From contig CAZHOI010000001.1 in assembly GCA_964534365.1 (NCBI GenBank), positions 55,560-119,559 on the forward strand: a DNA stretch of 64,000 bases. The letters run 5' to 3'. Positions 43,178 to 63,462 of the stretch are shown here, one piece after another. The notes under the pieces were generated by a model. The model saw only the letters and a list, made by a program, of their open reading frames with translations, was not told the DNA's origin and made no database searches. Each line of letters opens with the position of its first letter. Within the stretch, counting starts at the first letter, position 1. The translations under genes and the position numbers were made by a program. This DNA comes from an uncultured Candidatus Saccharibacteria bacterium. GTDB taxonomy: Bacteria > Patescibacteriota > Minisyncoccia > Phycocordibacterales > SW-6-46-9.

Positions 43178-43768
43178 TTAAATACCAATTTCCATCCCGT
43201 TTGTTAGAACCTGTCCCATGTAACCTATCTCAATTTTTAAATCATCAGTTCCTAAAGGAATAGGTTTAGATCCATCGTATATATTGCCATTGTATAGACC
43301 AAATACGGCAGTTTTTTGAGGTTCAGTCCTAGATTCTTCTGAATAATACTTAGTTTTTGTTTTTTCAACCTCAATAAAACCAAACCCTTCGGGAGACACA
43401 CCCTCCAGTACTCTACCATGGTAATAAATTCCATTTTTGTCTCTAGCCCAAGCTCCATCAATAATCTCAAAAGATTCTTGGTCTAAGTGATCATAAAATT
43501 CAGGACTTGCTATTGGTTCAATCACGTACCACTTATCATCATAATTCCAGTAATATCTATTATTATACGGGCCGCTACTTTGATAGATCGAAGCTAATTC
43601 ATAATTTTCATGTATTACCACATCATTTGGCTTTTCAATAATCTGATTGTTTCGATCAGTTGAGACAAAACCAATACTAGCTGTAATTATTAATAGTATA
43701 ACTAATAAGACAGTTAGGAGTATGGATTTGGTTTTCATAATTAACACAGGCAATAATACCACACACAC
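43178..43768 (-). CDS. Membrane-anchored DKNYY-repeat protein (hypothetical)
   Basis: N-terminal TM, repeated DKNGIYY / KW(Y) motifs characteristic of DKNYY-family proteins; 196 aa. Confidence 0.5.
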   Translation of the reverse strand: MCVVLLPVLIMKTKSILLTVLLVILLIITASIGFVSTDRNNQIIEKPNDVVIHENYELASIYQSSGPYNNRYYWNYDDKWYVIEPIASPEFYDHLDQESFEIIDGAWARDKNGIYYHGRVLEGVSPEGFGFIEVEKTKTKYYSEESRTEPQKTAVFGLYNGNIYDGSKPIPLGTDDLKIEIGYMGQVLTNGMEIGI

Positions 43769-43893
43769 TATTAGTGTTAGGCATTTTAAATCTATACCAC
43801 TACGTTAAACTTCGGGGCACCGTCACTTTGCACACTTCTTGTGCTGCGCGCCGCGAAGCTAAAACAACCCGCAAGGCGAGTTGTTTAGCGAAG

Positions 43894-43914
43894 TGGTGAC
43901 CCTACGGGGAATCG
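43894..43914. repeat. attL-like direct repeat: 21-bp copy of the tRNA-Glu 3' end (TGGTGACCCTACGGGGAATCG)
   Basis: Identical to 56866-56886, which is the 3' end of the intact tRNA-Glu; flanking sequence diverges immediately on both sides. Confidence 0.8.
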
Positions 43915-44236
43915 GTGTCAGCTCACTAATTCGCTAGGCTCATAAGTGGCTCCTACCCGGTCTCGAAAGCTGGGCTTTCTCCGACTTTTGATTATTACCA
44001 CTGGTAATTCACTTAAAACTAAAACAGCTTCAGATAAACTGAAACTGTTGTTAGCTTTTGTGAGCCTATAGCAGGTAGAACTTATTGTTCACCTTGTCAG
44101 GTAAGGCTATTTTAGCACCAAAACATAGATCATATACAACCCTTCAACAGCCCTAGTAAAAAGTGACAAAAGTTACACATATCGCGCTTGTGTCACAAAG
44201 TTACACAGCCCTGTAACAAACGAGTCTTTTTGCCAA

Positions 44237-47200
44237 TTATTTTTTAGCCTTACGAACAGTTCCTTTGACCACTTTCTTGACAGCAGTCTTTTTAGCGACA
44301 GCTTCCTTGGACTTATTTGTTGAGGTAGCTGGAATGTACTTTGTACAGTCAAGAGAAATCGCTGAGACACCATCTATCTTCATGAATGTATACTTAACAG
44401 TATCAAGTGTTTTTAGTTCTTCATTTACAATAATAAGAAAAATCCCGTGGGATGCACCATATCCATCCATGTACCTCTGTAAACTTTTGTATGATTTTGA
44501 TTCTTCAACTTTTCGTCCTCTGATGTCTTTGTTTGAAGTTAATTTTATTTCAACAATAACTGGACCTACAAATCCATATCGAATGATGAGATCCACACGT
44601 TTGTCGTCGAGTAAATCAGGTTCTCTTAAAACTTCAGATTCTATACCTCTTTTGAGAAGCGCATTTTCAATCTGAGTCGTTATTGTTTTTTGTATTAGCT
44701 TTTCGTATTCTTGCTTTTTAGAATCAAGAACTCTACCACCCAGTATCAATTCATAAGCACCTTCTCCTTCAATCCACTTTCGTAAGTCAGAGTCAAAAAC
44801 ATCTTGCAGCTCTCTAGTCAAATCAGCTGATGTTGTTATGCGTGAGTCTACATACTTTCGAGCAGCATTGTATCTCCGTATAGCCTCAGCATATCGAATT
44901 GGTTTTCCTATAGCGTTCAGATAAGCAAGTCGTAGCTTCACAATGTGTCCAGCAAGCCAATTTGCACCTTTCTTCTTTGTACCAATTGCTGCAATTTTTT
45001 CCTCTAAAATCTTTAATGGCTTATAGTCACCAAATTCTTTCAGGTTTTCAAAGTAGGCAAATGTAATCTCCCATAGGTATTGAGCATATGAACGATGGTT
45101 CTCTCCCATGGCCCAAACCTCCAGTGCTCTGTCCAATAATAATAAGTATTCATCTTCGAAACCTTGGTATTTCAAGTCCATAAGTGGCTTTGCAAACTCT
45201 TTACCAAATCGAATTTCATCCTCCATAGGTGTGACAGTATGTGCAAATCTTGACCTTCGTCTCGTCGGGGTAGCTGCCACTCTTGATTTAACTTGATCTA
45301 GCCTCCAATTAACAGCATCACGATTAGCATGTTTAGTGATAAGAAGTGAATTGGCTGCAATAGCAATCTCTCTTTCATCTTCCTGAGTACTCTCTTTGTA
45401 CATTCCAAACACACTCATTAAATAGTTTTCGTCTGAATGTAGGGTTTCTGAAACATTTAGTGCCTTAATTCGGTCTCGTGAGCGAAAGTCGCTTTGATGA
45501 ATAAAGTCTTTTAAAATAGGCAACGCCTTGGTCAGACTGTATTGTTCAACTGAGTCGACAAACGCATCAGGTTGCCATTTCCATAAATCATTATCTCTAG
45601 AAGAATAAATCTCAACTACTGGATCAAGTTCTTCCTCAGTAAAATCAGGAATCAGTTCAAATACCGTTTGTAGCTGTTCGGTGTGAGCAAAAGGTATGAA
45701 CTTAGCGATGTTAGATCTATAAGGGGTGATTTCTATCTTTCTAAGCTGAGCTGATTTTAGAGCATCTCCAAATATTATTGCTGCGCCACTAGCAGTATAG
45801 TTGCGACTTGCACCATCGTCAGTTTCTGAGTTTATGGTGAGGCCGTGTGAAGAAGGATCATGTCGCAAAGCTTCCTGTATTATCAAAGTATCAAATCGAT
45901 ATTTGTCATCGGAACTCATAAGTTTTTCAAGCTTTTCTGCATTTGAGTTGTAATCGTAAAACACTCGATTCATGTACATGTTTTCTGCTGGACAAAGAGA
46001 AGTTTTGAATGCCTCTAAAATCCGATCATCGTTAGCATCATCATGATTTACTTGCTGTTGACTCCTTGCTTCTTCATATTCCTGATATAAGGTTGGCAAT
46101 TTACTTCTACCTGCTTCGTATATCAATTCTGCGTCTTGACCACCCTTTAGTTTAATGCGCGTAAGTGTATGCATTACAACATTTTGCTGTTCGTCAGCAG
46201 CCAACATTGCATCTATAAAGGTTGCAACATCTTCTACTCTCAATAAATCTTCAAAGAAGTCCTGAGCAAAATATAATCCGTGGGCACCTTCCTCATCGCT
46301 GTTGAGCTGATTAATAAGTACAACAAAGAAGTCATCATTTTTATCTCGCAATAACTTCATTATTCCTCTTACAAAAGTCGATTTGCCTCTAGTAGAAGAT
46401 ACGGAGTAGTGGACGGATTTAACAATTGCTTGAAATAACAAATCTTGCATCTCATCGTCAAAACCGTCTTTGATATGATCAACGATTTTCAAGTCTTTAT
46501 CCTTAAAAATTGAAGTATCGTCTAAAAATTCTTTACGGAACTGCTCATCTTCAATATATATTTGCAAGAATTTTTTAATTGCTTGTGGCTCGGTGATTTC
46601 ATATATGCCGTACCGTCCGTGTAAATCATTAGCTCTAATCAGCTTTACAAACGCATTAATACTCCTGTCACTATTAGGATCAAGTGAAGTGCATAGTGAA
46701 ACATACTCGCGCATCACGAGTTCATCAGGAGTGTCTGTGATGTCAGGAAGATCATTAACAATAGTTTTATCACCAAACTCAGCTAGAGCGTACAATGCAT
46801 GTCGAGGCAAAACACCATTCTCATACGCATCTGATGAGTAACTTATTAGTTTTTCCCTCCAGTATTCTTTATCGATTGATACTTTTGATTTCAATAAATA
46901 TGCCAAAATATATGACACGTTTCCTAAGGGTACATAATATTTTGTTGAATCTTTCTGTTCTGTTTCAGCTTTCTCAACAATCTGCTTAAGGAACTTTTCG
47001 AGATCTGAACTAAAGAAAGCAGGTAGTGCCGATGTTAGCTGTCCAGGTATCCACTGAAGCCTATTGTTGTGATAATTTATTACGTCTTTAAACAATCTTT
47101 TTTTAACTTCTAGAGGAGTAAGACTTGGATTAATCCTGCCCAAAAAATTAATAAAAGATTCGTCAACAATTTTGAATGCTGTTCCGCTTATTCCAGAAAA

Positions 47201-48340
47201 GTCGATTAGTTGACCGAGCATCTCAGTGTCCATATCTGTGTAAAAACTAAGAGTATTATACCAAGCCGGATATATCTCTTTCATAACTGGATCAGTGGCG
47301 AATTCAAATATAGCTTTTCGGGGTTCAGCTAAACGAGTTATCTCTTTAGCGGCAAGATATTCTTGAAACTCTACGTTTTCAAACTCAATCTTACCCGTAT
47401 CGTATTTGCTAGTTTGGAGCACTGTGTTCTCTAATAAAATATCTATACCAACTTGAGCAAGTACCATCAGTTTCAGATCGGAACAAATCTCGTCAAAAAA
47501 TGTCACTAGTTCATCACGAGTAATATTATTACTCTGATAAATTTCCATAGTCAGCGCTAGTTTCTCAAGCAATCTTTTTATAACAGGCTCTAAATCACGA
47601 ATTTGTTCATTTCGTCCTGACTCAAGAGATAACTTTGAATAGATAAAGTGTTCAAACAGATCATTACGAGAGAAGTTGGAAATATTTGTAACCCCTTTTG
47701 CTTTAACAAAATCTTCAAATAAAAATAGATAGCGTGGAATTTGGATTATACTCTGGCCATGAAAACGTAACGATCTATTAAGTAAATCTTCGACTTCACC
47801 CTCACTTAGACCGCCTTTTTCAAGGTATTCACTGATTTGACCAGGCGTAAATGGTTTAATTATTATAAATCTGTATGTAGGGAAAGAGCTTGCGTACTTA
47901 TCCATAAACACCCACCGACTTGATATATAGATATTGATTTTTGGATATTTCTCAGATATTTCTTGTATTTTTTTCAGCACGGAATTGAATTCTGAGCGAG
48001 GTACTTCATCTAAAGCATCTAGAAAAAGTGACTTGGTCTTTTTTGATGATTTACCAACAAACTTATCAATTTCATTAATAGCAGTGCGAGAGCTTAAAGG
48101 AATAAAACTTGTTGTATGTCCATCATGCTTAAGATGATTCTCCATCTTTTTAACCAATTCAGTTTTTCCTATACCTGGCTCACCAACCACAACAGTTCTC
48201 CTACCTTGAGCCAAACTACCTATAGGAGTTGGTTTTGCATCATAAAAAACAAAGTGGCCAAACTTATTGTATTGCTCTTTTGCCTCCCTAAAGGAAGATG
48301 AAACTTCAGTGATAGGAATTATGTATCTGTTGTCACTCAT
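44237..48340 (-). CDS. 1367-aa STAND/NACHT-like P-loop NTPase with C-terminal PD-(D/E)xK nuclease-like domain (candidate defence protein)
   Basis: Walker A VVVGEPGIGKTEL (aa ~50-62), Walker B SLFLDALDEV, followed by IYISSRW (the hhhSR element seen in NACHT NTPases). ~900-aa helical middle. C-terminal ...KRVDLIIRYGFVGPVIVEIKL... fits D-x12-E-x-K. Lys-rich tail. Confidence 0.6.
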   Translation of the reverse strand: MSDNRYIIPITEVSSSFREAKEQYNKFGHFVFYDAKPTPIGSLAQGRRTVVVGEPGIGKTELVKKMENHLKHDGHTTSFIPLSSRTAINEIDKFVGKSSKKTKSLFLDALDEVPRSEFNSVLKKIQEISEKYPKINIYISSRWVFMDKYASSFPTYRFIIIKPFTPGQISEYLEKGGLSEGEVEDLLNRSLRFHGQSIIQIPRYLFLFEDFVKAKGVTNISNFSRNDLFEHFIYSKLSLESGRNEQIRDLEPVIKRLLEKLALTMEIYQSNNITRDELVTFFDEICSDLKLMVLAQVGIDILLENTVLQTSKYDTGKIEFENVEFQEYLAAKEITRLAEPRKAIFEFATDPVMKEIYPAWYNTLSFYTDMDTEMLGQLIDFSGISGTAFKIVDESFINFLGRINPSLTPLEVKKRLFKDVINYHNNRLQWIPGQLTSALPAFFSSDLEKFLKQIVEKAETEQKDSTKYYVPLGNVSYILAYLLKSKVSIDKEYWREKLISYSSDAYENGVLPRHALYALAEFGDKTIVNDLPDITDTPDELVMREYVSLCTSLDPNSDRSINAFVKLIRANDLHGRYGIYEITEPQAIKKFLQIYIEDEQFRKEFLDDTSIFKDKDLKIVDHIKDGFDDEMQDLLFQAIVKSVHYSVSSTRGKSTFVRGIMKLLRDKNDDFFVVLINQLNSDEEGAHGLYFAQDFFEDLLRVEDVATFIDAMLAADEQQNVVMHTLTRIKLKGGQDAELIYEAGRSKLPTLYQEYEEARSQQQVNHDDANDDRILEAFKTSLCPAENMYMNRVFYDYNSNAEKLEKLMSSDDKYRFDTLIIQEALRHDPSSHGLTINSETDDGASRNYTASGAAIIFGDALKSAQLRKIEITPYRSNIAKFIPFAHTEQLQTVFELIPDFTEEELDPVVEIYSSRDNDLWKWQPDAFVDSVEQYSLTKALPILKDFIHQSDFRSRDRIKALNVSETLHSDENYLMSVFGMYKESTQEDEREIAIAANSLLITKHANRDAVNWRLDQVKSRVAATPTRRRSRFAHTVTPMEDEIRFGKEFAKPLMDLKYQGFEDEYLLLLDRALEVWAMGENHRSYAQYLWEITFAYFENLKEFGDYKPLKILEEKIAAIGTKKKGANWLAGHIVKLRLAYLNAIGKPIRYAEAIRRYNAARKYVDSRITTSADLTRELQDVFDSDLRKWIEGEGAYELILGGRVLDSKKQEYEKLIQKTITTQIENALLKRGIESEVLREPDLLDDKRVDLIIRYGFVGPVIVEIKLTSNKDIRGRKVEESKSYKSLQRYMDGYGASHGIFLIIVNEELKTLDTVKYTFMKIDGVSAISLDCTKYIPATSTNKSKEAVAKKTAVKKVVKGTVRKAKK

Positions 48341-48349
48341 GTATGCAAG

Positions 48350-48380
48350 TATACTAAAATCCCATGTTTTATACTAAAAT
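48350..48380. promoter_or_regulatory. Divergent promoter/operator region with 11-bp direct repeat TATACTAAAAT x2 (20-bp spacing)
   Basis: The 49-bp gap between the NTPase gene (minus) and the 146-aa gene (plus) contains tatactaaaat at 48350-48360 and 48370-48380. Confidence 0.45.
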
Positions 48381-48389
48381 AAGCTTGTT

Positions 48390-48830
48390 ATGGACATTAA
48401 ACTCTTTGATTTAGAACTCAATCAAGTCAATCCAGCTGATATGGATAAAAATGTTAAGTACGAAGTACTTCGTATCACTGATATAAACCTGCACGGTAAC
48501 CAAAAGCGCCCGACCCAGAACCAAGGCAAGAAAATTGTAAAAGCACTCGAACGATCTGAACCAGTCAGAACCTACCATAAACATAAAAATATTACCCAGG
48601 TAGACGAGAATACCATCACGTCAACACTAGATATGCTGGGTTTTTTGCATAATGATCCGCACTTTGATGCGTATATTAAAAAAGCTCAAGCAGCTGGTAA
48701 AGAAGTGCTGCTCGCATTCCCAGCAGACGGCGTACCCATCTTTCTTGGTAAAGATGCTGCTGAATTTATGGAGGGTACACCTGCTTATAGAAAAACTAGG
48801 TTTGCACAAAAGAAAGACAATGATGTATAA
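48390..48830 (+). CDS. Hypothetical 146-aa protein divergently transcribed from the NTPase-nuclease
   Basis: No recognisable motifs; mixed-charge soluble protein. Position suggests a partner or regulator of the neighbouring gene. Confidence 0.45.
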   Translation: MDIKLFDLELNQVNPADMDKNVKYEVLRITDINLHGNQKRPTQNQGKKIVKALERSEPVRTYHKHKNITQVDENTITSTLDMLGFLHNDPHFDAYIKKAQAAGKEVLLAFPADGVPIFLGKDAAEFMEGTPAYRKTRFAQKKDNDV

Positions 48831-48905
48831 TTGGGGCATCAATCAATAGATTGCTTGTGTACAAAAGCAAGTAGTGTATCGTCTCACGACCATGCCTATT
48901 TCGCA

Positions 48906-48977
48906 CAAGAAATAGTTAACCAATTCGGTTCTGCTATTTCGTGTGTGAGATAGGTATTTTCTATTTCATGCATTTTA
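48906..48977. promoter_or_regulatory. Three CTATTTC boxes (one perfect palindrome CTATTTCGCACAAGAAATAG) upstream of the ParB-methyltransferase operon
   Basis: ctatttcgcacaagaaatag (48906-48925), ctatttcgtgtgtgagatag (48944-48963, imperfect inverted), ctatttc (48971-48977). Confidence 0.45.
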
Positions 48978-48997
48978 TAACTTAAACAAGTTTTAAA

Positions 48998-50281
48998 ATG
49001 ACGAAAAAACTAATATGGCACAACGCCACCAAAACAGTGGATGAACTCATTCCGCAAACTATCAACCCTCGCACCATTACCAACAAACAAATGGACGATC
49101 TCAAGAAGAGTCTAAAGAAATTTGGACTGGCTGAGATACCAGCGATTGATGCCGACGGTACTATACTGGCTGGACATCAGAGAATTAAGGCACTTCAGCT
49201 TCTTGGTCGGGGTAGCGAAGAAATCGACATTCGTGTCCCTAATCGTAAGCTCACCAAAGCTGAAGCAAAGCAGTATCTCATTTCATCAAACAAGCTGGGC
49301 GGTGACTGGGATTTTGAAGCTCTTAAAAGCTTCGATATCGACCTGCTTGCCAACTCTGGCTTCGATGATCTTGAGTTAGCTGAATTTTGGGATAAGGACT
49401 TATCAACTGAAGACGACGAATTTGACGAAGATAAAGAAGTAGATAAAGCCAAGGATACCGATATTGAATCTGGTGATCTTTTGGTACTTGGGAAACATAA
49501 GTTGTTATGCGCAGATTGCACTGATACAAGTGCCGTACAAGCTCTCTTTGGTGATGACCGCACCAGCTTCATCTATTCAGACCCACCGTACAACATCAAC
49601 CTCGACTATGACAAAGGCGTTGGTAACAAAAGCTCGTACGGCGGTAAGGTCGACGACGACAAAAAACCAGAACAATACAAAATGTTTATCAAGCAGACAC
49701 TCGAGGCTGCCTTGTCTGTATCGACCAAAGATACTCATGTGATGTATTGGTGCGATGAAGCGTGGGTTTGGGTATTTCAGACACTGTATAACGAACTTGG
49801 AATTAAAAATCGACGCCTGAACCTATGGTTAAAAAATAATGCCAGCCCGACACCTCAAGTAGCATTTAACAAAGTCGTTGAATTTTGTGTATATGGCACA
49901 CTCGGCAGTCCATATCTATCCAAACAAACCAGAGACGTGACTGAGGTGCAAAACAAAGAACTGGGTACTGGCAATCAGCTACTCGAAGATGTATCTAATG
50001 TCTGGACAGCCAAGCGGCTAAAAGCCAGTGAATACGAACACCCAACTTCTAAGCCGCCGACACTGCATGAAAAAGCAATCAAACGTTGCACAAAATCAAA
50101 TGACATTATTTTCGATTCGTTTGCTGGTTCGGGCAGTACTTTGATTGCCGCTGAAGCACTTAAACGTCGAGTGTATACCATCGAGCAAAGTCCGATATTT
50201 TGTGAAGTTGTTCGTCGGCGATATGAGAAATTAACTGGGAAAAAGGTGCAGCTAATCAAACACTTCTATGAAAAAACCTAG
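48998..50281 (+). CDS. ParB-like nuclease domain fused to beta-class N6-adenine (DPPY) DNA methyltransferase
   Basis: N-terminal ParB/Srx motif ILAGHQRIKAL. MTase motif IV SDPPYNI precedes motif I FDSFAGSGST (beta-class permutation); 427 aa. Confidence 0.8.
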   Translation: MTKKLIWHNATKTVDELIPQTINPRTITNKQMDDLKKSLKKFGLAEIPAIDADGTILAGHQRIKALQLLGRGSEEIDIRVPNRKLTKAEAKQYLISSNKLGGDWDFEALKSFDIDLLANSGFDDLELAEFWDKDLSTEDDEFDEDKEVDKAKDTDIESGDLLVLGKHKLLCADCTDTSAVQALFGDDRTSFIYSDPPYNINLDYDKGVGNKSSYGGKVDDDKKPEQYKMFIKQTLEAALSVSTKDTHVMYWCDEAWVWVFQTLYNELGIKNRRLNLWLKNNASPTPQVAFNKVVEFCVYGTLGSPYLSKQTRDVTEVQNKELGTGNQLLEDVSNVWTAKRLKASEYEHPTSKPPTLHEKAIKRCTKSNDIIFDSFAGSGSTLIAAEALKRRVYTIEQSPIFCEVVRRRYEKLTGKKVQLIKHFYEKT

Positions 50282-50654
50282 ATATTCCAAACAGTTCCTT
50301 GAGGAACTAAAGAAGGTGCCAATTGTGCAAGTGGCGTGCGAGAAGACTGGAGTCTCTAGAAATACTGTCTATCGCTGGAAACGGGACGACAAAGACTTTG
50401 CCGCTGAATTTGATGACGCTTTAGCTGAAGGAGTTAATTACGTCAACGATATGAGTGAAAGTCAGCTATTACAGCTGATCAAAGATCAAAACTTCTCAGC
50501 GGTGCGTTTTTGGCTCAATAAACGCCATCCAGCATACAAGGAGAAGCTTGAAGTAGTGAACAAACATGAGGTTATTGAACTAACAGATAGTCAGAAGAAA
50601 ACTATCAAACAAGCTTTGCAATTAACCAATCCTAAGACAAAAGAACATGACTAA
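50268..50654 (+). CDS. Terminase small-subunit-like HTH protein
   Basis: HTH VACEKTGVSRNTVYRWKRDD near the N-terminus; 128 aa. Overlaps upstream gene by 14 nt and the terminase large subunit by 8 nt (coupled operon). Confidence 0.6.
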   Translation: MKKPRYSKQFLEELKKVPIVQVACEKTGVSRNTVYRWKRDDKDFAAEFDDALAEGVNYVNDMSESQLLQLIKDQNFSAVRFWLNKRHPAYKEKLEVVNKHEVIELTDSQKKTIKQALQLTNPKTKEHD

Positions 50655-52083
50655 CATTCCTAATCATCTCATAGAAAAGATTACTAATGACATCGCCGTT
50701 CGTCGTGAAATCACTAAAGACAGCCATCGGTACTTTATGGCGATTTATCTGCATGAATACATCAAGTATCCAAGTGCTTCATTTCACTCGGAAATGATTG
50801 AATTCACCGAGCGGACAGATGAAAAGCTGTTTGCAGTAGTGTCATTTCGAGGCTCTGCCAAATCAACCATCTTTTCACTGTCGTATCCAATTTGGGCTAT
50901 TCTCGGCAAACAACAGAAAAAGTTTGTGTTGATTATTTCTCGTACCCAAGTGCAAGCTCGACAATTGCTTCACAACATTAAGGTTGAACTAGAACGCAAC
51001 GATCTACTTAAACAAGACCTCGGACCATTTGAAGAACCACAAGATGAATGGCGCGCGGCTTCTATTGTGATACCGAAGTACGATGCTCGTATCATGGTGC
51101 TATCCGCTGATCAAAGTATGCGTGGACTGCGTCATAAGAGTCATCGTCCTGACCTTATTATCTGTGACGATATCGAAGATATCGCTTCAACCAAGACTCA
51201 AGATAATCGAGACAAGACATTCAATTGGTTTACCGGAGAAATCATCCCAGCTGGTGACTTGCATACAAAGATCATCTTGATTGGAAACCTTGTTCATGAC
51301 GACTCACTTATGGTGCGCCTACGTGAAAAAATTGAAAACAATGAAGTGTCAGGAGTGTTTAAAGCTTATCCGCTGATCAACAGTCACGGCGAGTGTTTGT
51401 GGCCAGAGAAATTTCCAGATGAAGCATCACTTGAAGCGTTACGAAAAGAGGTTATGAGCAAACAAGCATGGGAACGTGAGTATTTGCTCAAGATTATTCC
51501 AGACGATGAGCAGATCATAGATCCACTCTGGATTCGTACCTATCACGAGATACCAGCTGATATGAAGCGTCTTGGTGTATTTGTTGGCGTTGATCTAGCA
51601 ATTTCAGAGAAAACTACCGCTGATTATACCGCGATGGTTCCAGTACTAGCTTGTTCACGAAATAGTGAGTTGTATCTGTACGTCTTGCCTGAAATCGTAC
51701 ACGCTCGGATGAGTTTTCCAAAAACGTGTGAGCAGATACAGTATCTTGATCTCAAGCTTAACTCAAAATACAAAATGAATCCGGAGTTTATTATTGAGAA
51801 CGTGGCGTATCAAGATGCAGTGGTGCAGCACTTCGATAAAACATCGATTGATGTTGAGGGTGTGCGTCCGCTTGGTGACAAGCGAGAAAGACTGAACCTT
51901 GCTGCTACAGCTTTGAGTGATAAGCGAGTGTTCTTCCCGCATGAAGCTAGCGATAAACTCATTCAAGAGTTAGTCCACTTTGGCTCAGAAAAGCATGACG
52001 ACCTAGCAGATGCATTTTCGCTAGTGACACTAGAGGTGATGGTTAATAAGAAACCAGAGCGACCGGTAGTGTTTTTTGCGTAG
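50647..52083 (+). CDS. Phage terminase large subunit
   Basis: ATPase Walker A VVSFRGSAKST and Walker B DLIICDDIED, C-terminal RNase-H-like nuclease region (GVDLAISEKTTADYTA ... D residues); 478 aa. Confidence 0.8.
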   Translation: MTNIPNHLIEKITNDIAVRREITKDSHRYFMAIYLHEYIKYPSASFHSEMIEFTERTDEKLFAVVSFRGSAKSTIFSLSYPIWAILGKQQKKFVLIISRTQVQARQLLHNIKVELERNDLLKQDLGPFEEPQDEWRAASIVIPKYDARIMVLSADQSMRGLRHKSHRPDLIICDDIEDIASTKTQDNRDKTFNWFTGEIIPAGDLHTKIILIGNLVHDDSLMVRLREKIENNEVSGVFKAYPLINSHGECLWPEKFPDEASLEALRKEVMSKQAWEREYLLKIIPDDEQIIDPLWIRTYHEIPADMKRLGVFVGVDLAISEKTTADYTAMVPVLACSRNSELYLYVLPEIVHARMSFPKTCEQIQYLDLKLNSKYKMNPEFIIENVAYQDAVVQHFDKTSIDVEGVRPLGDKRERLNLAATALSDKRVFFPHEASDKLIQELVHFGSEKHDDLADAFSLVTLEVMVNKKPERPVVFFA

Positions 52084-52151
52084 CGAGTATGTGACGCTTT
52101 TAATACCCTGCATAGCTATGCAGGGTATTTTGGTCTGTCATTAATATAGAT

Positions 52152-53447
52152 ATGGAAGGAGATATATCTCTATCAGAAGCAAGAGTCAGATACTGTCTAT
52201 ACGCTAGAAAATCGACCGAATCAGACGAACAACAGGCGCTGTCGATAGATTCCCAGATTAAAGAAATGCAGGCCATTGCAGAGCGCTTGAAACTCAATGT
52301 GGTGGATGTGAAGCGTGAGTCACACTCTGCTAAAGAGTCTGGCAAGCGACCAGTCTTTAAAGAGTTGCTCGGAGATATCGCAAACGAAAAATACAACGGT
52401 ATTCTCACCTGGGCACCAGATCGTCTGTCTCGAAACGCTGGTGACCTTGGTACTGTGGTTGACCTCATGGACGCAGGGAAACTGATTCATATTCAAACGT
52501 ATGGACAAACCTTCTCAAACTCACCAAACGAGAAGTTCTTACTGATGATTTTGTGCTCCCAAGCCAAGCTCGAAAACGACAACAAGAGCATTAATGTGAA
52601 GCGTGGTATGCGAGCTAGGGTTGAAATGGGCCTATGGCCCTGCAAGCCACCGACTGGCTATACTAGATTTAAACGCATTGACCAGAAGTGCGAAGCAATC
52701 CTTGATCCTGAACGCGCACCAATGATTAAACAAATGTTTGAGAAGATAGGCTATGATGGCTGGACAGGAAGAAAGCTACACTTATGGCTGAGAGATGAGA
52801 TTGATTTTAGAACTGAAAACGGCAAACATCTTTGCCTCGGCAACCTCTATCGCATAATCCAAAACCACTTTTACTACGGCAGATTTGAGTATCCCAAGAA
52901 TTCTGGCAACTGGTATGACGGTGTCCATGAACCAATCATCACCAAGGAGCTGTTTAATATCGTGCAAGAACAGATCAAAAGCCAAATCCTCGAACCACGT
53001 TCAGCCCAAAAAGAGTTCGCTTTCACTAAAACCATGACCTGCGGTCTCTGTGGCTCAGGCATTACCGCTGATGAGAAGTTTAAAAAGCAAAAGAATGGCA
53101 ATATCCACCGCTACGTTTACTACAAATGTACCCGCACCCGCGATCCTCACTGTGACTGTGGGTTTATCAATGAAAATGACCTGATAACCCAACTACAAGC
53201 CCTCTTGGATGATATAGATATCAAAGTGGTACCGATGCGAGACAAGATCACCAACGAAGTTCGCCGCTACAAGCAATTTCAGCAGATGCTCTTAGGAAAT
53301 GAGACCAAGATTTCGGTCAAAGATATTGATATCCGCAATTACTGTAAGTTTATCTTGCAAGAAGGAGACCTAGAAGAAAAGCGTGATTTTCTTAGATGTT
53401 TGAAGAGTAACGTCTATCTAAACAAAAAAGTAATCAAACTTCAGTAG
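52152..53447 (+). CDS. Large serine recombinase (integrase)
   Basis: Resolvase catalytic domain YARKSTESDEQQALSIDSQ with the nucleophile Ser, recombinase domain, C-terminal zinc ribbon CGLCGSG...YYKCTRTRDPHCDC; 431 aa. Confidence 0.85.
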   Translation: MEGDISLSEARVRYCLYARKSTESDEQQALSIDSQIKEMQAIAERLKLNVVDVKRESHSAKESGKRPVFKELLGDIANEKYNGILTWAPDRLSRNAGDLGTVVDLMDAGKLIHIQTYGQTFSNSPNEKFLLMILCSQAKLENDNKSINVKRGMRARVEMGLWPCKPPTGYTRFKRIDQKCEAILDPERAPMIKQMFEKIGYDGWTGRKLHLWLRDEIDFRTENGKHLCLGNLYRIIQNHFYYGRFEYPKNSGNWYDGVHEPIITKELFNIVQEQIKSQILEPRSAQKEFAFTKTMTCGLCGSGITADEKFKKQKNGNIHRYVYYKCTRTRDPHCDCGFINENDLITQLQALLDDIDIKVVPMRDKITNEVRRYKQFQQMLLGNETKISVKDIDIRNYCKFILQEGDLEEKRDFLRCLKSNVYLNKKVIKLQ

Positions 53448-53482
53448 TTGCGACAAAGAGTAAGTATGATATATTCAACTAT

Positions 53483-53806
53483 ATGGTTGAACAAAGTATT
53501 AATTTAGACACTGTCTTTCAGGCTCTCGCCGACCAAACACGGCGGGATATCTTAAAGCGGGTGTCACAAGCCGAGCTTTCCATAAGCAAGCTCGCTGAAC
53601 CATACAAAATGTCCTTTGCAGCAATTGCTAAACATGTGGGTGTGCTCGAGCGTGCCAATTTGGTTGCTAAACGTCGTGAAGGCAAACAACAAATTATCAG
53701 TGTTGTGCCAAAGACCGTTGCCGTCGCCACGACCCATCTTGAGTTGTATGAAAAGATGTGGAATGAACGCTTCAATGCATTGGAGGTACTCCTTAATGAA
53801 AAATAA
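53483..53806 (+). CDS. ArsR-family transcriptional regulator
   Basis: ALADQTRRDILKRVSQAELSISKLAEPYKMSFAAIAKHVGVLERANLV = ArsR/SmtB winged HTH; 107 aa. Confidence 0.85.
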   Translation: MVEQSINLDTVFQALADQTRRDILKRVSQAELSISKLAEPYKMSFAAIAKHVGVLERANLVAKRREGKQQIISVVPKTVAVATTHLELYEKMWNERFNALEVLLNEK

Positions 53807-54251
53807 TATGAAAACACTTACCTATTCAATTCAAATCAACAAACCACAAGAGTTTGTTTTTAATAAGCTTATAGACAAGTCTGTATATCCAGGCTGGTCC
53901 AAAGCCTGGGGTGAAGGAATGATTTACGATGGTGACTGGAAAGAGGGCGGTCACATTTCCTTTTTTGATAAAGAAAGAGGCGGTACGAAGGTAGTGATAG
54001 AAGAATATAAACCATACCAGTGTATCAAAACCAAGCACATAGCGATGGTCAATCCTCAAAACGAAGAAATATCTCTAACTGACGATATGATGAAGAAATG
54101 GATGGGTACGCGAGAGGATTACTATTTTATAGCCAACGACGATAGAACCACCACATTTGAAGTCATTATGGTTACCGATGAGGCTTTTGAAGAGATGATG
54201 AATGCGTGGTCACAAGCGCTCGTGTATTTCAAAGAAATTTGTGAAGCCTAA
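53796..54251 (+). CDS. SRPBCC (AHSA1/Aha1-like) domain protein
   Basis: Track ORF 53616..54251 overlaps arsR; the in-frame Met at 53796 (MKNNMKTLTYSIQINKPQEFVFNKL...) gives a ~151-aa SRPBCC-sized protein. Confidence 0.6.
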   Translation: MKNNMKTLTYSIQINKPQEFVFNKLIDKSVYPGWSKAWGEGMIYDGDWKEGGHISFFDKERGGTKVVIEEYKPYQCIKTKHIAMVNPQNEEISLTDDMMKKWMGTREDYYFIANDDRTTTFEVIMVTDEAFEEMMNAWSQALVYFKEICEA

Positions 54252-54289
54252 AGTAAAAATTATTAAACCCTAAGTTAAGTACAAAATAT

Positions 54290-54766
54290 ATGGCAACACT
54301 AAAAGTAACTGCTCCAGAACACTCACAAGACATTATTGGTGAGGTCGAAATTAACGCCCCTTTAGAGAAAGTATTTGAAGCCTTTATTAACAAAGATTTA
54401 TTCATTAAATGGTTTTGTCGTGGCAACACTGTCACAGTTAACCAGTTTGAAGGTAAGGACGGTGGCACGTGGGATATTGCTGAGCGAGACCCTGAAGGAA
54501 ATGAATGGGGCTTCTACGGTGTTTTTCACGAAATTGCTCCAAGTGAACGAATCATTTGGACGTTTGAGTTTATGGGTATACAAGAGCGAGGTCATGTCTC
54601 ACTCGAACGTATGGAGTTCACCGACGCCGGTGACGGCACGACTAAAATGAAAAGTATTTCTACCTTCCTCACCAAAGAAGACCGTGATGGCATGGTCGCC
54701 AGTGGTATGGAGGCTGGCTGGCGACAGTCAATTGAAGCCTTAGAAGAGGTGGTAAATGAGAAATAA
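54290..54766 (+). CDS. SRPBCC (AHSA1-like) domain protein
   Basis: INAPLEKVFEAFINKDLFIKWF... typical Aha1/SRPBCC start; 158 aa. Confidence 0.65.
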   Translation: MATLKVTAPEHSQDIIGEVEINAPLEKVFEAFINKDLFIKWFCRGNTVTVNQFEGKDGGTWDIAERDPEGNEWGFYGVFHEIAPSERIIWTFEFMGIQERGHVSLERMEFTDAGDGTTKMKSISTFLTKEDRDGMVASGMEAGWRQSIEALEEVVNEK

Positions 54767-55244
54767 TAAATCTATGAAAAAACTAACTATCGAACGAACC
54801 TTTAATCATCCAATTGAAAAAGTCTGGGCAGCCTGGACAACTCCTGAGCTACTAGCACAGTGGTTCACCCCAACCGGAATGACCAATACGCTTGCTACCG
54901 CTGACGTGGAAGTCGGCGGCCTCTTTCGGTACTGCTTTAAGAGCGTTGAAGATGGGAAAGAGTACTATGGTCGTGGACGTTACCACACCATCACACCGAT
55001 GACGCGCCTCTCATACTACGACTCATTTACTGATGAGACCGGTGCTGACGTGCCAGCTTCACATTATGGAGCGGGTAGCGACCAGATTGAAGAGACGTTG
55101 GTAGATATTAGGTTTGAAGATTTAGGTGAACAAACTAAGATGACGATTGAGATGGAAAATCCATATGCTGACAACCCAGAAATGGCTGCACAAATGATGG
55201 CTGGCTGGAACAGTATGTTTGATAAGCTTGCAAACCTTCAATAA
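54756..55244 (+). CDS. SRPBCC (AHSA1-like) domain protein
   Basis: ERTFNHPIEKVWAAWTTPELLAQWF; 162 aa. Confidence 0.65.
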   Translation: MRNNKSMKKLTIERTFNHPIEKVWAAWTTPELLAQWFTPTGMTNTLATADVEVGGLFRYCFKSVEDGKEYYGRGRYHTITPMTRLSYYDSFTDETGADVPASHYGAGSDQIEETLVDIRFEDLGEQTKMTIEMENPYADNPEMAAQMMAGWNSMFDKLANLQ

Positions 55245-55743
55245 TATGTTTTTGTTCGGGAAAGAAAAAACTCTGCAATTTGAAAGAGAGTTTAATGCTC
55301 CAGTTGAAAAGGTCTGGGATGCCTTTACTATCCCGACAATCCTAACACAGTGGTGGGGACCAGAAGGAACGACGATTCCAGAGTGCGAGATGGATGTAAA
55401 AGTTGGAGGTAAAATTAGAATTGTAATGGAAGCTGGTAAAAGTATGGGTTCGTATGCTGGTACCCGCTGGCCACTTGAGGGTCACTTCACGTTAGTAAAG
55501 CAACATGAACAATTACAATATGAAGCACTCGCTTGGACTGAAGGAAGGAAAGACACTACTACGATAGATCAAATAAATGATGTAACTCTTACAATAAATG
55601 GCGAAAAAACTAATATGGTTTTCATTGTCACTATTAAGAAGACGGGTATTAAAGCCAGTATGGCAGCTTTTGGTATGAAAATGGGGTATGCATCGCAATT
55701 CAAGAAATTAGAGCAATTATTTAATGCAGACAATAATCAATAA
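55219..55743 (+). CDS. SRPBCC (AHSA1-like) domain protein
   Basis: EREFNAPVEKVWDAFTIPTILTQWW; 174 aa (start possibly at internal Met). Confidence 0.65.
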   Translation: MISLQTFNNMFLFGKEKTLQFEREFNAPVEKVWDAFTIPTILTQWWGPEGTTIPECEMDVKVGGKIRIVMEAGKSMGSYAGTRWPLEGHFTLVKQHEQLQYEALAWTEGRKDTTTIDQINDVTLTINGEKTNMVFIVTIKKTGIKASMAAFGMKMGYASQFKKLEQLFNADNNQ

Positions 55744-55746
55744 TAT

Positions 55747-56103
55747 ATGAAAATTACTACAAAAATTATTCAGATACTTCTTGCGCTGTGGTTTATAGCT
55801 GGAGCGATGTATATGATGGGAAATTTCGAGTTCTTAGCCAGTGAAGCCGCCAGTACCTGGTCACAGTTGTTTTGGGTAACGCTTGGTGTGGTTCAAATAT
55901 TACTCGCACTCACTTTACTAATTGGAGCATTTTGGAAGAAAGCGCAGTCGTATGTTCCTGTGGTTGGACTGGGACTGATAATCATTACGCTTGGTGGATT
56001 ATATTGGTACAGTGCGTATAAAGGCTTTTCAGGGTCACTCTGGGCAATAGTTCCAGCCTTACTACTAGGTTGGGTAGTATACTTTTATAAAGCTAAATCA
56101 TAA
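55747..56103 (+). CDS. DoxX-like membrane protein
   Basis: Four hydrophobic helices, 118 aa, typical DoxX size and pattern. Confidence 0.55.
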   Translation: MKITTKIIQILLALWFIAGAMYMMGNFEFLASEAASTWSQLFWVTLGVVQILLALTLLIGAFWKKAQSYVPVVGLGLIIITLGGLYWYSAYKGFSGSLWAIVPALLLGWVVYFYKAKS

Positions 56104-56390
56104 TGACAAAGACAATCACTAAAACCACCGCCTATCACGACGTTCCAAAAACTGTGTTAGCTGTACTGAAGAAAGATATGCAGCTCACTGAGATTTGGAA
56201 CGGTTTGACCGATATCCAACGCAACGAGTGGTGTTGTTACGCTGAGACTGGCAAGAAAGAAGAAACTCGAGCAGAACACCTCCGCCGGTTTGAGAGCGAC
56301 ATGAAAGCCGGTAAAAAGACGCCATGTTGTTGGCCTGGTTGTCCACATCGCAGGCCGAAAGCCGCTAAGTGGTTTGGTACTAAAAAATAA
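56103..56390 (+). CDS. YdeI/OmpD-associated family protein
   Basis: LTDIQRNEWCCYAETGKKEETRAEHLRRFESDMKAGKK resembles the YdeI-family conserved core; 95 aa. Confidence 0.55.
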   Translation: MTKTITKTTAYHDVPKTVLAVLKKDMQLTEIWNGLTDIQRNEWCCYAETGKKEETRAEHLRRFESDMKAGKKTPCCWPGCPHRRPKAAKWFGTKK

Positions 56391-56392
56391 CT

Positions 56393-56758
56393 ATGACAAA
56401 TCACAATGTAAAGACTGTAAATGAGTTTATAAAAGAATCTGCAAAAGATGCACGACCTCACCTCAAAGAGCTTCAAGCGCTAATACAAGCAACAGTGAAG
56501 GGTGTTGAAGAGACAATTAGTTATGGTAAGCCTTACTACAAACTAAACGGTCATTTGGTTGGTTTTGATGCCTATAAGCAACATATTGGTTTTGAAATAT
56601 ATGAAGGTCAACTCGATGAGGAACATAGGTCTAAACTCGAAGAGAAAGGGTATAAAACCGGGAGCAAAGGATTTCAGATAAGTTTTGATCAAAAGGTGCC
56701 AGTTGCTATAGTAAAGAAAGTCGTTAAGCGTCAGGTCTCTGTAAATAAAAACAAATAA
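56393..56758 (+). CDS. DUF1801 (YdhG-like) domain protein
   Basis: VNEFIKESAKDARPHLKELQALIQATVKGVEETISYGKPYYKLNGHLVGFDAYKQHIGF pattern of DUF1801; 121 aa. Confidence 0.6.
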   Translation: MTNHNVKTVNEFIKESAKDARPHLKELQALIQATVKGVEETISYGKPYYKLNGHLVGFDAYKQHIGFEIYEGQLDEEHRSKLEEKGYKTGSKGFQISFDQKVPVAIVKKVVKRQVSVNKNK

Positions 56759-56777
56759 CAACATTTTCACCCAACAC

Positions 56778-56808
56778 AAAAAACAGCCTCAAGTGAGGCT
56801 GTTTTTTG
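56778..56808 (+). terminator. Rho-independent terminator ending the island operon
   Basis: aaaaa-cagcctca-agtg-aggctg-tttttt. Confidence 0.75.
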
Positions 56809-56865
56809 TGTTGTTTGAGCTAGTGTTTTTGAGTCTAATTACGACCCATAAACAGCTAGCTGTCA

Positions 56866-56940
56866 ATGGTGACCCTACGGGGAATCGAACCCCGGTTTTC
56901 GCCGTGAGAGGGCGATGTCCTAGCCGCTAGACGATAGGGC
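56866..56940 (-). tRNA. tRNA-Glu (anticodon CTC), with encoded CCA
   Basis: Reverse complement GGCCCTATCGTCTAGCGGCTAGGACATCGCCCTCTCACGGCGAAAACCGGGGTTCGATTCCCCGTAGGGTCACCA. Anticodon stem TCGCC/GGCGA, loop CT-CTC-AC, T-loop GGTTCGATTCC. Confidence 0.85.
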
Positions 56941-57080
56941 CGTCTTTTATCATAAATAATTTTAGAAAATTATTTATTTTGGGCATAGATTTGCCACCAA
57001 ATCTATTAGCCTTGTGTAGAAATTTTAGTTTACCAAAGTATAAATATCAAATATTAAACACTGAAAGTTTGTGGCAATAC

Positions 57081-57122
57081 CAAATACCAAATACCAAATA
57101 CCAAATACCAAATACCAAATAC
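57081..57122. repeat. Heptanucleotide microsatellite (CAAATAC)6 with degenerate flanking copies
   Basis: caaatac repeated six times exactly, preceded by caatac and followed by caataaa. Intergenic between tRNA-Glu and the ftsI stop. Confidence 0.9.
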
Positions 57123-57136
57123 CAAATACCAATAAA

Positions 57137-60990: not shown

Positions 60991-61125
60991 TCAGGAGATA
61001 CGGCGATTGGTGGGTGGCGGCGGGTTCTCGCTCTCGCAGCTCTCGTCCCGGCGGGCAAAGCCCATCACAAGCATGAGAAGCAGAAAAAGAACAATTACCA
61101 ACACGAGGAGGATTTCGGGGATCAT
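60991..61125 (-). CDS. 44-aa single-TM peptide (GC-rich block)
   Basis: MIPEILLVLVIVLFLLLMLVMGFARRDESCESENPPPPTNRRIS; below the ORF-track size cutoff. Confidence 0.3.
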   Translation of the reverse strand: MIPEILLVLVIVLFLLLMLVMGFARRDESCESENPPPPTNRRIS

Positions 61126-61185
61126 CGCGGTTGGGGTCTAGTGTAGTTTTAATCTAGCATACTTCTAAAGGATTTATTTTTGTTG

Positions 61186-61230
61186 AAAAAGAAAAACCCG
61201 CCGGTTGCTGGAGTGGCAACACGACGGGTA
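61186..61230 (-). terminator. Rho-independent terminator (minus strand) after the 41-aa peptide gene
   Basis: Minus-strand acccgtcg-tgttgccactccagcaac-cggcgggt followed by tttttc. Confidence 0.5.
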
Positions 61231-61248
61231 GGTGGTAGGAAGGAAGAA

Positions 61249-61374
61249 TCATTCGTACATTCTTCCGGTCGGATCCAACTCATCCAATGCTCTATTGGTG
61301 TGGTGGATCACTATACTCCACATGGTTAGGAACGCTCCCACGGCAAGGGTGCCAATAACAGTGGCTAATTTCAT
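61249..61374 (-). CDS. 41-aa single-TM peptide (GC-rich block)
   Basis: MKLATVIGTLAVGAFLTMWSIVIHHTNRALDELDPTGRMYE. Confidence 0.3.
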   Translation of the reverse strand: MKLATVIGTLAVGAFLTMWSIVIHHTNRALDELDPTGRMYE

Positions 61375-61530
61375 AGCGAGGGTCAGGTTGTGAAGCTTAA
61401 TTATGCCATAAATTGTATAGTATGTAAAAAAAACCCCGGCGGCGCTGTGCGTCGTCGGGGACCGTGGCAGTTCGTAAACTCCAAGGTATTACGTGATTTT
61501 ACGCTCACGTTAAGCGTTTTCAGTTGCGGA

Positions 61531-62619: not shown

Positions 62620-62991
62620 GAGGGGGCGCCGCGGGGGCGCGGGGTATGAGTGATGACGAGGTTAGGCCAGTCACAAGTGACGAGCCGACCCTGGTTCACT
62701 GACCTCTAGCACTAGTCTATTTCTAGACAGCAACTGAAAAGTCAAAGAACTGGGGTCGAGTTGCATTATTGCAACCGACTCTATCCATAATAATACATTA
62801 GAATCTGTATTTTGTCAAATAGCTTTACCTCTTTTATTACCACTATTACTACGTTAATGAAGTATGAGAAAAGCCTGCTGGAACGTGTATCGAAAACCAG
62901 GCAGGCTAGAATCCGCAGTGTTCACCGCGAATCAGAAGGAACATTATTTTCGACTTTAGTTTCCCTCTTCTCTGGGCGCCTTACAGGACGC

Positions 62992-63462
62992 CTAATCGGT
63001 GATGATCTGGATTCCCCAGACCTTATCACCTATCTTAATCCGGCCGATCTCCTCACCAGGCTGTGCCCGGTGAGTGCGAGTAGCGGTCCAGTAGTAGAGC
63101 TGGTCATCCTTGGAGGTTGACCAGTTACCGATCCCATAGAGAGTTACCTCTCCGGTGAGGCCGGTAATCTTCTGGACGGCATCGCGGCTGAGCTCCACGT
63201 ACTGAGGGTCGCCCAGCGGTTGGGCCACTTTGATGTTGCCCTCAGTCACTGCCGGAGGGCCGTCAGGCGGAGGCGTATCAGTCGAGTCGGTCGGAGCCGG
63301 CTCGTCGTCACAGCACTGCTGCATGTCCGGCCCAGCGATGGTGTCGCTGCAGCCGGTCAGAAGGCCGCCGAGGGCGAGCATCCACCAGAAAGCGCCGAAA
63401 GCGATCACCCGGTAGATGGTGCGGCTTCCGAAGAGGCCTTTTTTGTCGATGACGTGTGCCAT
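62992..63462 (-). CDS. Predicted lipoprotein (GC-rich block)
   Basis: Signal peptide with lipobox LLTGC, Pro/Asp-rich linker; 156 aa. Confidence 0.45.
   Translation of the reverse strand: MAHVIDKKGLFGSRTIYRVIAFGAFWWMLALGGLLTGCSDTIAGPDMQQCCDDEPAPTDSTDTPPPDGPPAVTEGNIKVAQPLGDPQYVELSRDAVQKITGLTGEVTLYGIGNWSTSKDDQLYYWTATRTHRAQPGEEIGRIKIGDKVWGIQIITD

Follow-up and report, generated by a model that had tools for sequence, protein, structure and literature searches.

The 64,000-nt stretch analysed here (the window; contig CAZHOI010000001.1 of an uncultured Candidatus Saccharibacteria bacterium) contains, at positions 43915–56866, a 12.95-kb block of DNA at the 3′ end of a tRNA-Glu(CTC) gene, which we read, with a probability of about 0.7, as an integrative mobile island of a Patescibacteria (Paceibacteria-like) chromosome, phage-satellite-like in character and integrated by a serine recombinase. 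The block is delimited by a 21-nt direct repeat, TGGTGACCCTACGGGGAATCG, which occurs exactly twice in the window (43894–43914 and 56867–56887) against a chance expectation of none (100 shuffles); no third copy was found on either strand of the window with up to three mismatches. The identity is exactly 21 nt, with both flanks of each copy diverging at once. Given that the tRNA-Glu(CTC) was placed at 56867–56941 on the minus strand, intact, by both ARAGORN and Rfam, the proximal copy (the attR core, the last 21 nt of the gene) comprises the 3′ half of the T-loop, the 3′ strand of the T-stem, the 3′ strand of the acceptor stem, and the CCA; the distal copy (43894–43914) repeats this tRNA 3′ end as the attL core. 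The insert is thus bounded by an exact repeat at both ends, with its target gene intact. An earlier note, made from the letters of this DNA, had already claimed a site-specific insertion here; its first repeat copy, its assignment of the second copy to the 3′ half of an intact tRNA-Glu(CTC), and the divergence directly outside both copies all held (the extension of the repeat stops at 21 nt), while its coordinates for the second copy (56866–56886) were off by one.

Five genes on the plus strand make up the core of the island. The first (orf146; 48390–48830) encodes a 146-residue protein that is syntenic in most loci of the family described below (30–94% identity) and had no match in Pfam, PHROG, PADLOC, or the PDB; its AlphaFold model reached a pLDDT of 64.6, and Foldseek returned nothing below E = 0.8. 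The second (48998–50281) encodes a ParB-N-like domain fused to an N6/N4 DNA methyltransferase (PF01555, 1.4e-27; phrog_498, 1e-79; phrog_620, ParB-like), with the ParB_N domain (PF02195) present in a homologue. The third and fourth genes encode the two terminase subunits: a TerS-like helix-turn-helix protein (50268–50654; PHROG terminase-small families to 1.2e-10; PF13022) and a full-length TerL (50647–52083; phrog_38, 3e-76). The latter shares 23–26% identity over ~90% of its length with the TerLs of cultured phages and displays the invariant motifs GSAKST, LIICDD, VDLA, and HDDLADA, covering Walker A/B and the acidic nuclease residues. The fifth gene (52152–53447) encodes a large serine recombinase of 431 residues, the presumed integrase, with the catalytic (PF00239 Resolvase), recombinase (PF07508 Recombinase), and zinc-ribbon (PF13408 Zn_ribbon_recom) domains of this class, the catalytic serine, and a YARKST catalytic motif (phrog_95, 8e-60). 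It matches the integrases SPbeta YokA/SprA, TP901-1, and A118, and was aligned with SPbeta YokA/SprA across residues 17–402.

Cargo genes lie on either side of this core. On the distal side, a minus-strand gene (44237–48340) encodes a 1367-residue protein with an N-terminal P-loop (STAND/KAP-like) NTPase domain, recognized through weak P-loop family matches only and with no match in PADLOC, PHROG, or the PDB. The earlier note had listed it as an NTPase-nuclease among genes of mobile-element type; the recombinase, TerS and TerL, ParB-methyltransferase, and cargo of that list stand, while the nuclease part of the label lacks support, as only the N-terminal P-loop was detected. With nothing found past the P-loop, we rejected both a nuclease and a defense assignment for this protein, the gene for which is not present in other family members. 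On the tRNA side, a plus-strand cargo operon (53483–56758) encodes an ArsR-type regulator, an unassigned protein of 151 residues, three AHSA1/SRPBCC proteins, a DoxX-like protein, an OmdA/YdeI protein, and a DUF1801 protein, and is likewise not common to other members.

The distal end region (44050–44225, minus strand) is noncoding and contains operator-like palindromes (GTGACAC/GTGTCAC); it is 90% identical to positions 3859–4029 of L082 and has matches in 10 further family loci (numbers from L003 to L120 denote related loci gathered by homology to window proteins). Between it and the flank stand a terminator-like hairpin (44023–44049, minus strand; terminator scan) and a conserved structured module (43896–44019, minus strand), the 3′ strand of which is the distal repeat, as placed by a profile, covariance model R1, and covariation. 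At the opposite end, a bidirectional terminator hairpin with 25-nt arms (56767–56818; inverted repeat I2, 92% complementary), kept in L082, L029, and L083, terminates the cargo operon and, on the opposite strand, tRNA-Glu. It is separated from the tRNA gene by the tRNA-proximal arm (P′; TTGACAGCTAGCTGTTTATGGGTCGTAATTAGACTC..., 56819–56866, minus strand), which includes a palindrome (ACAGCTAGCTGT, 56852–56863). This arm is near-invariant in two relatives, with the 40 nt after the CCA in L082 identical to window positions 56866–56827 and 2 mismatches over 44 nt in L029, although host FtsI is only 43–52% identical. Just outside the distal repeat, a further hairpin (AAACAACTCGC-CTT-GCGGGTTGTTT; 43862–43886, minus strand) was noted by inspection at a position where the terminator scan made no call. 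Related loci have a terminator hairpin directly 3′ of tRNA-Glu, and the hairpin in the window is probably the original tRNA-Glu terminator, hence part of the host flank (B′).

The island belongs to a widespread Patescibacteria family with a compact, syntenic five-gene core in the order small ORF, ParB-methyltransferase, TerS, TerL, and large serine recombinase. A TerL search recovered the same gene order in 26 metagenome loci and one IMG/VR locus (TerL identity 67–99%), a database search returned 3457 TerL homologues at E ≤ 1e-10, and the core was kept in three sampled contexts with TerL identities of 49–69%, on contigs of 98–253 kb. More than 30 independent loci, with TerL identities as low as 49%, share this five-gene core and have no structural gene. 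TerS and TerL are always adjacent and overlapping across the family loci, and TerL is followed by the recombinase in all of them, yet the family is mosaic (L083, TerL 92% and recombinase 63%; L099, TerL 70% and recombinase 85%). No capsid, portal, or tail family was found in the searched proteins of the window, L081, L082, L083, L084, L097, and L115, or in the precomputed annotation of L117–L120. A replication gene (primase, helicase, or rep) was absent from the conserved core, from the window cargo, and from every locus examined. No direct repeats or tRNAs lie within 10 kb of TerL in L117–L120 (49–69% identity), the ends of these members being further out. The cargo around the core is interchangeable, with defense, metal-resistance, or stress genes that vary from locus to locus; it includes CBASS, Shedu, Druantia-like/DruA, type ISP restriction-modification, NurA/DUF87, IetA-like AAA, Hsp70-like, DUF6119, LexA/S24 or XRE repressors, multicopper oxidases, HMA ATPase, DtxR, APH, and glyoxalase.

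In the comparison of the window with L082 (dS range 0.44–2.0), dN/dS was lowest in TerL (0.007), followed by the recombinase (0.018), TerS (0.049), orf146 (0.059), and the methyltransferase (0.082). Such strong purifying selection points to a functional terminase rather than a relic. The sole relative found in IMG/VR is a chromosomal region, and the proximal-arm sequence has no exact match in IMG/VR. We also noted a 159-kb contig with two diverged cores of ParB-methyltransferase, TerS, TerL, and recombinase in opposite orientation, ~12 kb apart (L115, 717–5997; L104, 8352–12956), a region that IMG/VR lists as a single virus.

The claim of a site-specific insertion at the tRNA 3′ end drew support from four independent lines of evidence: the ancestral synteny of the locus, a copy in another host, a second bounded member, and joined ends. 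The copy in L082 is near-identical (89% nucleotide identity over 5 kb; TerL 99%) and also adjoins a tRNA-Glu(CTC). Its host is distant, with an FtsI fragment of 52% identity and a tRNA that departs from that of the window at 3 of the 21 repeat positions, and the copy thus documents horizontal transfer to the same site in another host. L097 is a 19.26-kb member (TerL 71% and recombinase 62% identical to those of the window) inserted in tRNA-Gln(TTG), the 3′ end of which supplies the 21-nt repeat found at both of its boundaries; the complete bounded members are thereby two, of 13 and 19 kb. In L084, L090, and L107, the distal-end sequences with the module run without a break through the tRNA-like core into a proximal-arm hairpin (GAGCTAGCACGAGAC...), the arrangement expected of attP, and the same hairpin also occurs directly behind tRNA-Ser in L100. 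Of the circular or attP form that the earlier note had proposed to look for, only attP-like joined ends were seen, in contigs of other members, and nothing of the kind for this species. The recombinase clade of the window, L082, and L099 (85–95% identity) pairs with Glu cores, that of L083–L093 (86–100%) with cores ending CTCCGCA, and L097 with Gln; recombinase clades, as far as these sequences go, track the tRNA type of the core.

Several further observations concern the ends of related elements. A motif, GCACGAGAC(GCGTC), often within a palindromic hairpin, recurs close to each end of the element and immediately behind the tRNA that serves as target (L097, 454–469 and 19427–19442; L100, 3165–3215; also L107, L090, and L094), and may be a binding site of the recombinase or a regulator. 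In L083 (2238–2283), a 46-nt quasi-palindrome (ATACTGaagcAATCGG-gtctg-CCGATaaccAGTAT) connects the end regions in place of a tRNA-like core and module; it has the look of a classical attP of a serine integrase that targets a site other than a tRNA. In L029 (19594–19694), the proximal arm and terminator of the element stand directly behind tRNA-Glu with 2 mismatches in 44 nt and no element genes; the tRNA-Glu is inverted there relative to ftsI, with an IS200-like transposase and a scaffold gap nearby.

The host locus itself was compared through FtsI, which matched only Patescibacteria/Paceibacteria genomes at identities of up to 45%. In the 80 related loci anchored on FtsI, the base for both the synteny and the solo-unit counts given here, the recurrent order is mraZ, rsmH, ftsI, one gene, tRNA-Glu(CTC), a variable stretch of 0–7 kb, rplU, recR, and dnaB, and the 13 kb in the window is therefore extra DNA at a variable hotspot. 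The housekeeping character that the earlier note had ascribed to the flanks agrees with this order (recR, rplU, and the DKNYY gene on one side; ftsI, rsmH, and mraZ on the other). As for the empty site it had suggested seeking, an empty-like arrangement was seen in the distant genome of L076 only, where rplU begins 57 nt after tRNA-Glu, and in no conspecific contig. Many of the FtsI-anchored contigs terminate at tRNA-Glu. In the window, a perfect tandem array of the heptamer AATACCA (8.1 copies, 57076–57132) lies between ftsI and tRNA-Glu, and since the conspecific contigs end there, it is this array, not the element, that breaks the assemblies of other samples.

Earlier traffic at this locus may have left traces. 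The DKNYY gene (43178–43768, with 43769–43893 beyond it) lies on the rplU side of the distal repeat, before rplU itself; none of the 80 related loci has a counterpart there, and the gene may be a leftover of an earlier insertion at the same hotspot. Truncated recombinases occur at the ftsI/tRNA-Glu locus of other genomes (L018, L015, and L020); in L018 (14633–14944), as in L015, L020, and L078, only the C-terminal 100–125 residues are found downstream of ftsI, with identities of 79% in L018 and 38–42% in the other three. These fragments look like decayed former insertions.

The structured module at the distal end, to which the earlier note made no reference, is composed of a 5′ strand antisense to the tRNA end, a core, and the copy of the tRNA end. 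The core consensus is AUCGAAAG-N-CGGAG[hairpin]CGAG-N'-C-GGGGUCGCGAGC[hairpin]GACUUGUGACC; a second core type (...CUGUAAG...), known from three complete sequences, has the same outer helix as the first. A profile built without the window matched 43993–43896 at E = 2.8e-9 (tRNA core alone, E = 0.0068), and covariance model R1, the seed of which includes the window, scored the window at 86 bits and found 18 copies. In the alignment of these 18 copies, which was fitted to the model and thus favors the structure in the figures that follow, 93.7% of cells formed pairs, versus 70.7% in shuffles and 28–45% with slid partners. Double changes were present in 21 of 24 pairs, and conserved G-U pairs make the fold strand-specific. 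In 7 of 10 modules, the best pairing partner of the outer 5′ strand was the tRNA end belonging to that module, and the window module keeps the inner three-way-junction core.

The module is also found outside the islands. In 10 FtsI-anchored loci, exact repeats revealed a copy of the tRNA-Glu 3′ end 159–230 nt downstream of the gene, each matching the tRNA-Glu variant of its own genome, and the DNA in between consists of a terminator hairpin followed by the conserved element. Counted by model or inspection, such solo units stand behind tRNA-Glu in ~16 of the 80 related loci, and tandem and degenerate copies were noted in L038, L024, L004, and L053. Hairpin, module, and core form a discrete unit that is present or absent as a block among family members, and exactly this block is missing from L094. 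Modules matched to their own tRNA-like cores occur in L097 (Gln), L092, L103, L084, L090, and L107. In L024 (7280–7700) and L004 (15100–15270), degenerate tRNA-Glu-like sequences have modules at the positions of the D-loop and T-loop; a tRNA-Glu intron was considered for these and rejected, as the 3′ strand of the acceptor is missing, which makes them decayed pseudogenes.

Known RNA families do not account for the module. There was no Rfam 15 match at the gathering score in the window or in six related loci; the best permissive match, to c-di-GMP-I-GGC, reached 26.7 bits versus a threshold of 59 bits, involved one variable hairpin of L003 only, and was rejected. Self-cleaving ribozymes, group I/II introns, tmRNA, and T-box elements were set aside, with no required motif present (as judged against their consensus motifs) and no support from Rfam. 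RNA-guided targeting, by analogy with bridge RNA, is disfavored, as recombinase clades follow the type of tRNA, and a single such clade contains the two types of module. The folded module belongs to the attachment region, where it could act as a tRNA-like processing signal, as an architectural part of attP, or as a self-mobile cassette. A more specific but doubtful proposal is that the unit of hairpin, core, and tRNA copy is a structure-dependent attachment cassette: a strand-specific tRNA mimic, as RNA or folded single-stranded DNA, that moves as a block and acts in site choice, directionality, or processing. Its outer helix would pair the tRNA 3′ end with an antisense strand encoded by the element, and it would move between islands (present in L084, L090, L107, L097, and the window; absent from L094 and L082) and chromosomal tRNA genes, where solo and tandem copies stand behind tRNA-Glu. 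If true, this would amount to a tRNA-targeted mini-element system of Patescibacteria with no described counterpart.

For the island as a whole, we propose that the serine recombinase joins attP, which would comprise the structured module, a tRNA 3′-end copy, and the proximal arm, to the end of the tRNA gene, attB. The reconstructed attP would read ...GAGCTGACAC-core-TTGACAGCTAGC..., and attB would be the tRNA-Glu end followed by CTTCGCTAAACAAC...; the predicted junctions are accordingly the tRNA-Glu end joined to CTTCGCTAAACAACTCGCC for attB and ...GAGCTGACAC-CGATTCCCCGTAGGGTCACCA-TTGACAGCTAGCTG for attP. The 21-nt repeat would be the half-site common to both, and because the two sites share these 21 nt, the tRNA would stay intact and gain the trailer and terminator of the element, with the native tRNA hairpin left behind at 43862–43886 after insertion. 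Upon excision, the island's own TerS and TerL would load its 13–19 kb genome into procapsids of a helper phage, the methyltransferase would protect island DNA, and the cargo would pay for the upkeep of the island. Satellite behavior is the most likely reading, since both terminase subunits are under very strong purifying selection in the absence of capsid genes.

A number of points weigh against this reading. Packaging is something we infer from the conservation of the terminase only, and no helper phage, capsid-size redirection gene, or replication gene was identified. Neither an empty attB nor a circular junction of this element was found among conspecific contigs, by exact look-ups of FtsI, RecR, and DUF1801 across at least five samples; every conspecific contig recovered from these samples has the island in place, and recent mobility in this species is thus not demonstrated. 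The attP-type contigs of relatives are not proven to be circular, with whole family contigs lacking terminal overlaps. The attachment model has difficulties of its own: the window module has lost its outer helix, the antisense of the tRNA end (−6 kcal/mol), L082 has neither module nor distal repeat, and joined ends without a module occur in L094, L083, and L104. Serine integrases need only a 2-bp crossover, and an identity of 21 bp exceeds what the chemistry requires. As to the crossover, the host-type tRNA end beside an identical arm in L082 suggests a point near the CCA; the solo copies, each a perfect match to the local tRNA, suggest a point near the T-loop.

The same core genes could serve an island that does not package itself at all. 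An integrative defense or stress island might owe its movement to the recombinase and its spread to transformation, vesicles, or recombination in the host, with TerS, TerL, and the ParB-methyltransferase blocking the packaging of infecting phages or processing excised DNA. This is a rather unlikely account, though one with evidence behind it, as the cargo consists mostly of defense and resistance genes, the island is fixed in every conspecific sample, and a helper phage, a capsid gene, and a replication gene were seen nowhere. However, TerL has the lowest dN/dS of the core (0.007) and full ATPase and nuclease motifs, TerS and TerL are adjacent and overlapping as in phage packaging operons, and sizes of 13–19 kb fit small capsids or partial filling; we also know of no precedent for interference by a complete terminase without self-packaging. 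A decayed remnant of an ordinary tailed prophage, stripped of structural, lysis, and replication genes, is in our view very improbable. TerS, TerL, the ParB-methyltransferase, and the integrase are typical prophage genes, one relative is binned as viral in IMG/VR, and truncated recombinases occur at the same locus elsewhere, but random decay would not yield this architecture repeatedly: the same capsid-free core recurs in the >30 independent loci down to a TerL identity of 49%, all five of its genes are under strong purifying selection, and both complete members have defined ends, at sizes of 13 and 19 kb.

The direct repeat could also be older than the 13-kb insertion, in which case the island would have arrived between tRNA-Glu and a resident solo unit of hairpin, module, and core, and the 21-nt repeat would not mark ends made by this integration. 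The solo units in 10 loci by exact repeat (159–230 nt downstream), or ~16 of 80 by model or inspection, are what such a history would start from, and the unit behaves as a discrete presence/absence block; moreover, L082 is homologous to the window only as far as 44050, directly adjoining the unit, which L082 lacks. This sequence of events would, however, leave three copies of the core, where only two are present within three mismatches, and every other family member in which a regulatory-region end with a unit can be seen (L097, L092, L103, L084, L090, and L107) has the unit inside the element, matched to a different tRNA and, in three of these six, joined directly to the proximal arm. We therefore hold an older repeat to be improbable.

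Returning to the satellite reading, the island is a small element with its own integrase, without a full set of virion genes, and with packaging genes (a TerS-like protein and a full-length TerL). It has no replication module of its own such as those of phage-inducible chromosomal islands (PICIs), P4, or the PICI-like elements (PLEs), and because of this missing replication gene we have not filed it as a PICI, a P4-like element, or a PLE. Nor does it have the makeup of a complete tailed prophage, as the recombinase follows TerL and the housekeeping flanks limit the insert to 13 kb. Classical PICIs carry TerS, and capsid-forming PICIs (cfPICIs) carry both TerS and TerL. The island resembles PICIs, including those of Staphylococcus aureus (SaPIs), and cfPICIs in its 10–20 kb size class, site-specific integrase, phage-derived packaging genes, defense or accessory cargo, and lack of tail genes; those islands depend on a helper phage, as the present one would on the satellite reading. 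It differs in that its integrase is a large serine recombinase rather than a tyrosine recombinase, in having TerL without a capsid, portal, or protease gene, in lacking a primase/replicase module, in the ParB-methyltransferase fusion within its core, and in its Patescibacteria host.

A closer match in recombinase class is the PLE of Vibrio cholerae, a satellite integrated and excised by a large serine recombinase for which the helper phage supplies the directionality factor (PMC6002521). The likeness lies in the shared recombinase class, the comparison being one of class alone and not of sequence. No directionality factor was identified in the island. To our knowledge, the PLE lacks terminase genes and targets a repeat element rather than a tRNA. 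The tycheposons of Prochlorococcus are tRNA-targeting islands of 10–20 kb in streamlined genomes, with partial tRNA copies, niche-adaptive cargo, and tandem accumulation at hotspots; most use a tyrosine recombinase together with primase/helicase modules, a minority use large serine recombinases, and PICI-like members carry terS or a capsid gene (10.1101/2020.12.28.424599). Compared by published description, no TerL/ParB-methyltransferase core or structured attachment module is reported for tycheposons.

The recombinase has the same three-domain build as those of SPbeta (SprA), TP901-1, A118, and phiC31, and members such as L083 have attP-like quasi-palindromes as these phages do. The att sites of temperate-phage serine integrases are 40–50 bp with few shared bases, whereas 21 nt of the tRNA end are shared here and the attP of the island is embedded in a structured module of ~125 nt. 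For the module alone, an analogy may be drawn with the attC sites of integrons, imperfect and strand-specific inverted repeats that end discrete cassettes, which can stand in tandem beside a fixed site; attC sites are, however, recombined as folded single strands by a tyrosine recombinase, where the island enzyme is of the serine class, and have no conserved three-way-junction core. No evidence of single-strand recombination was seen at the island module. We found no published description of the family or the module in the literature, and both are apparently undescribed; the island apparently works like a satellite of the PICI, cfPICI, or PLE kind and resembles tycheposons in its tRNA targeting and cargo.

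Little is known of the mobile elements and phages of Patescibacteria, whose genomes are tiny; the window provides a clean, bounded example. The family appears to be one of the main vehicles for defense and metal-resistance genes in Patescibacteria. A complete terminase under extreme purifying selection without capsid genes is an unusual design for a satellite and predicts helper phages so far unseen. Serine integrases that are 85–100% identical within a clade and linked to defined tRNA targets are useful for the discovery of integrase tools, and the covarying tRNA-like structure, which has no Rfam counterpart and is met repeatedly as solo units behind tRNA-Glu, is a testable candidate for a new functional RNA or a new type of recombination site.

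Elsewhere in the window, beyond the ftsI side of the island, we noted a stretch at 61000–63000 with 55–60% G+C in a genome of ~40% G+C. It contains a minus-strand ORF (61531–62619) for a protein of 362 residues that combines a signal peptide and a proline-rich linker with a C-terminal part rich in glycine, and for which Pfam records no family; this stretch may be foreign DNA.

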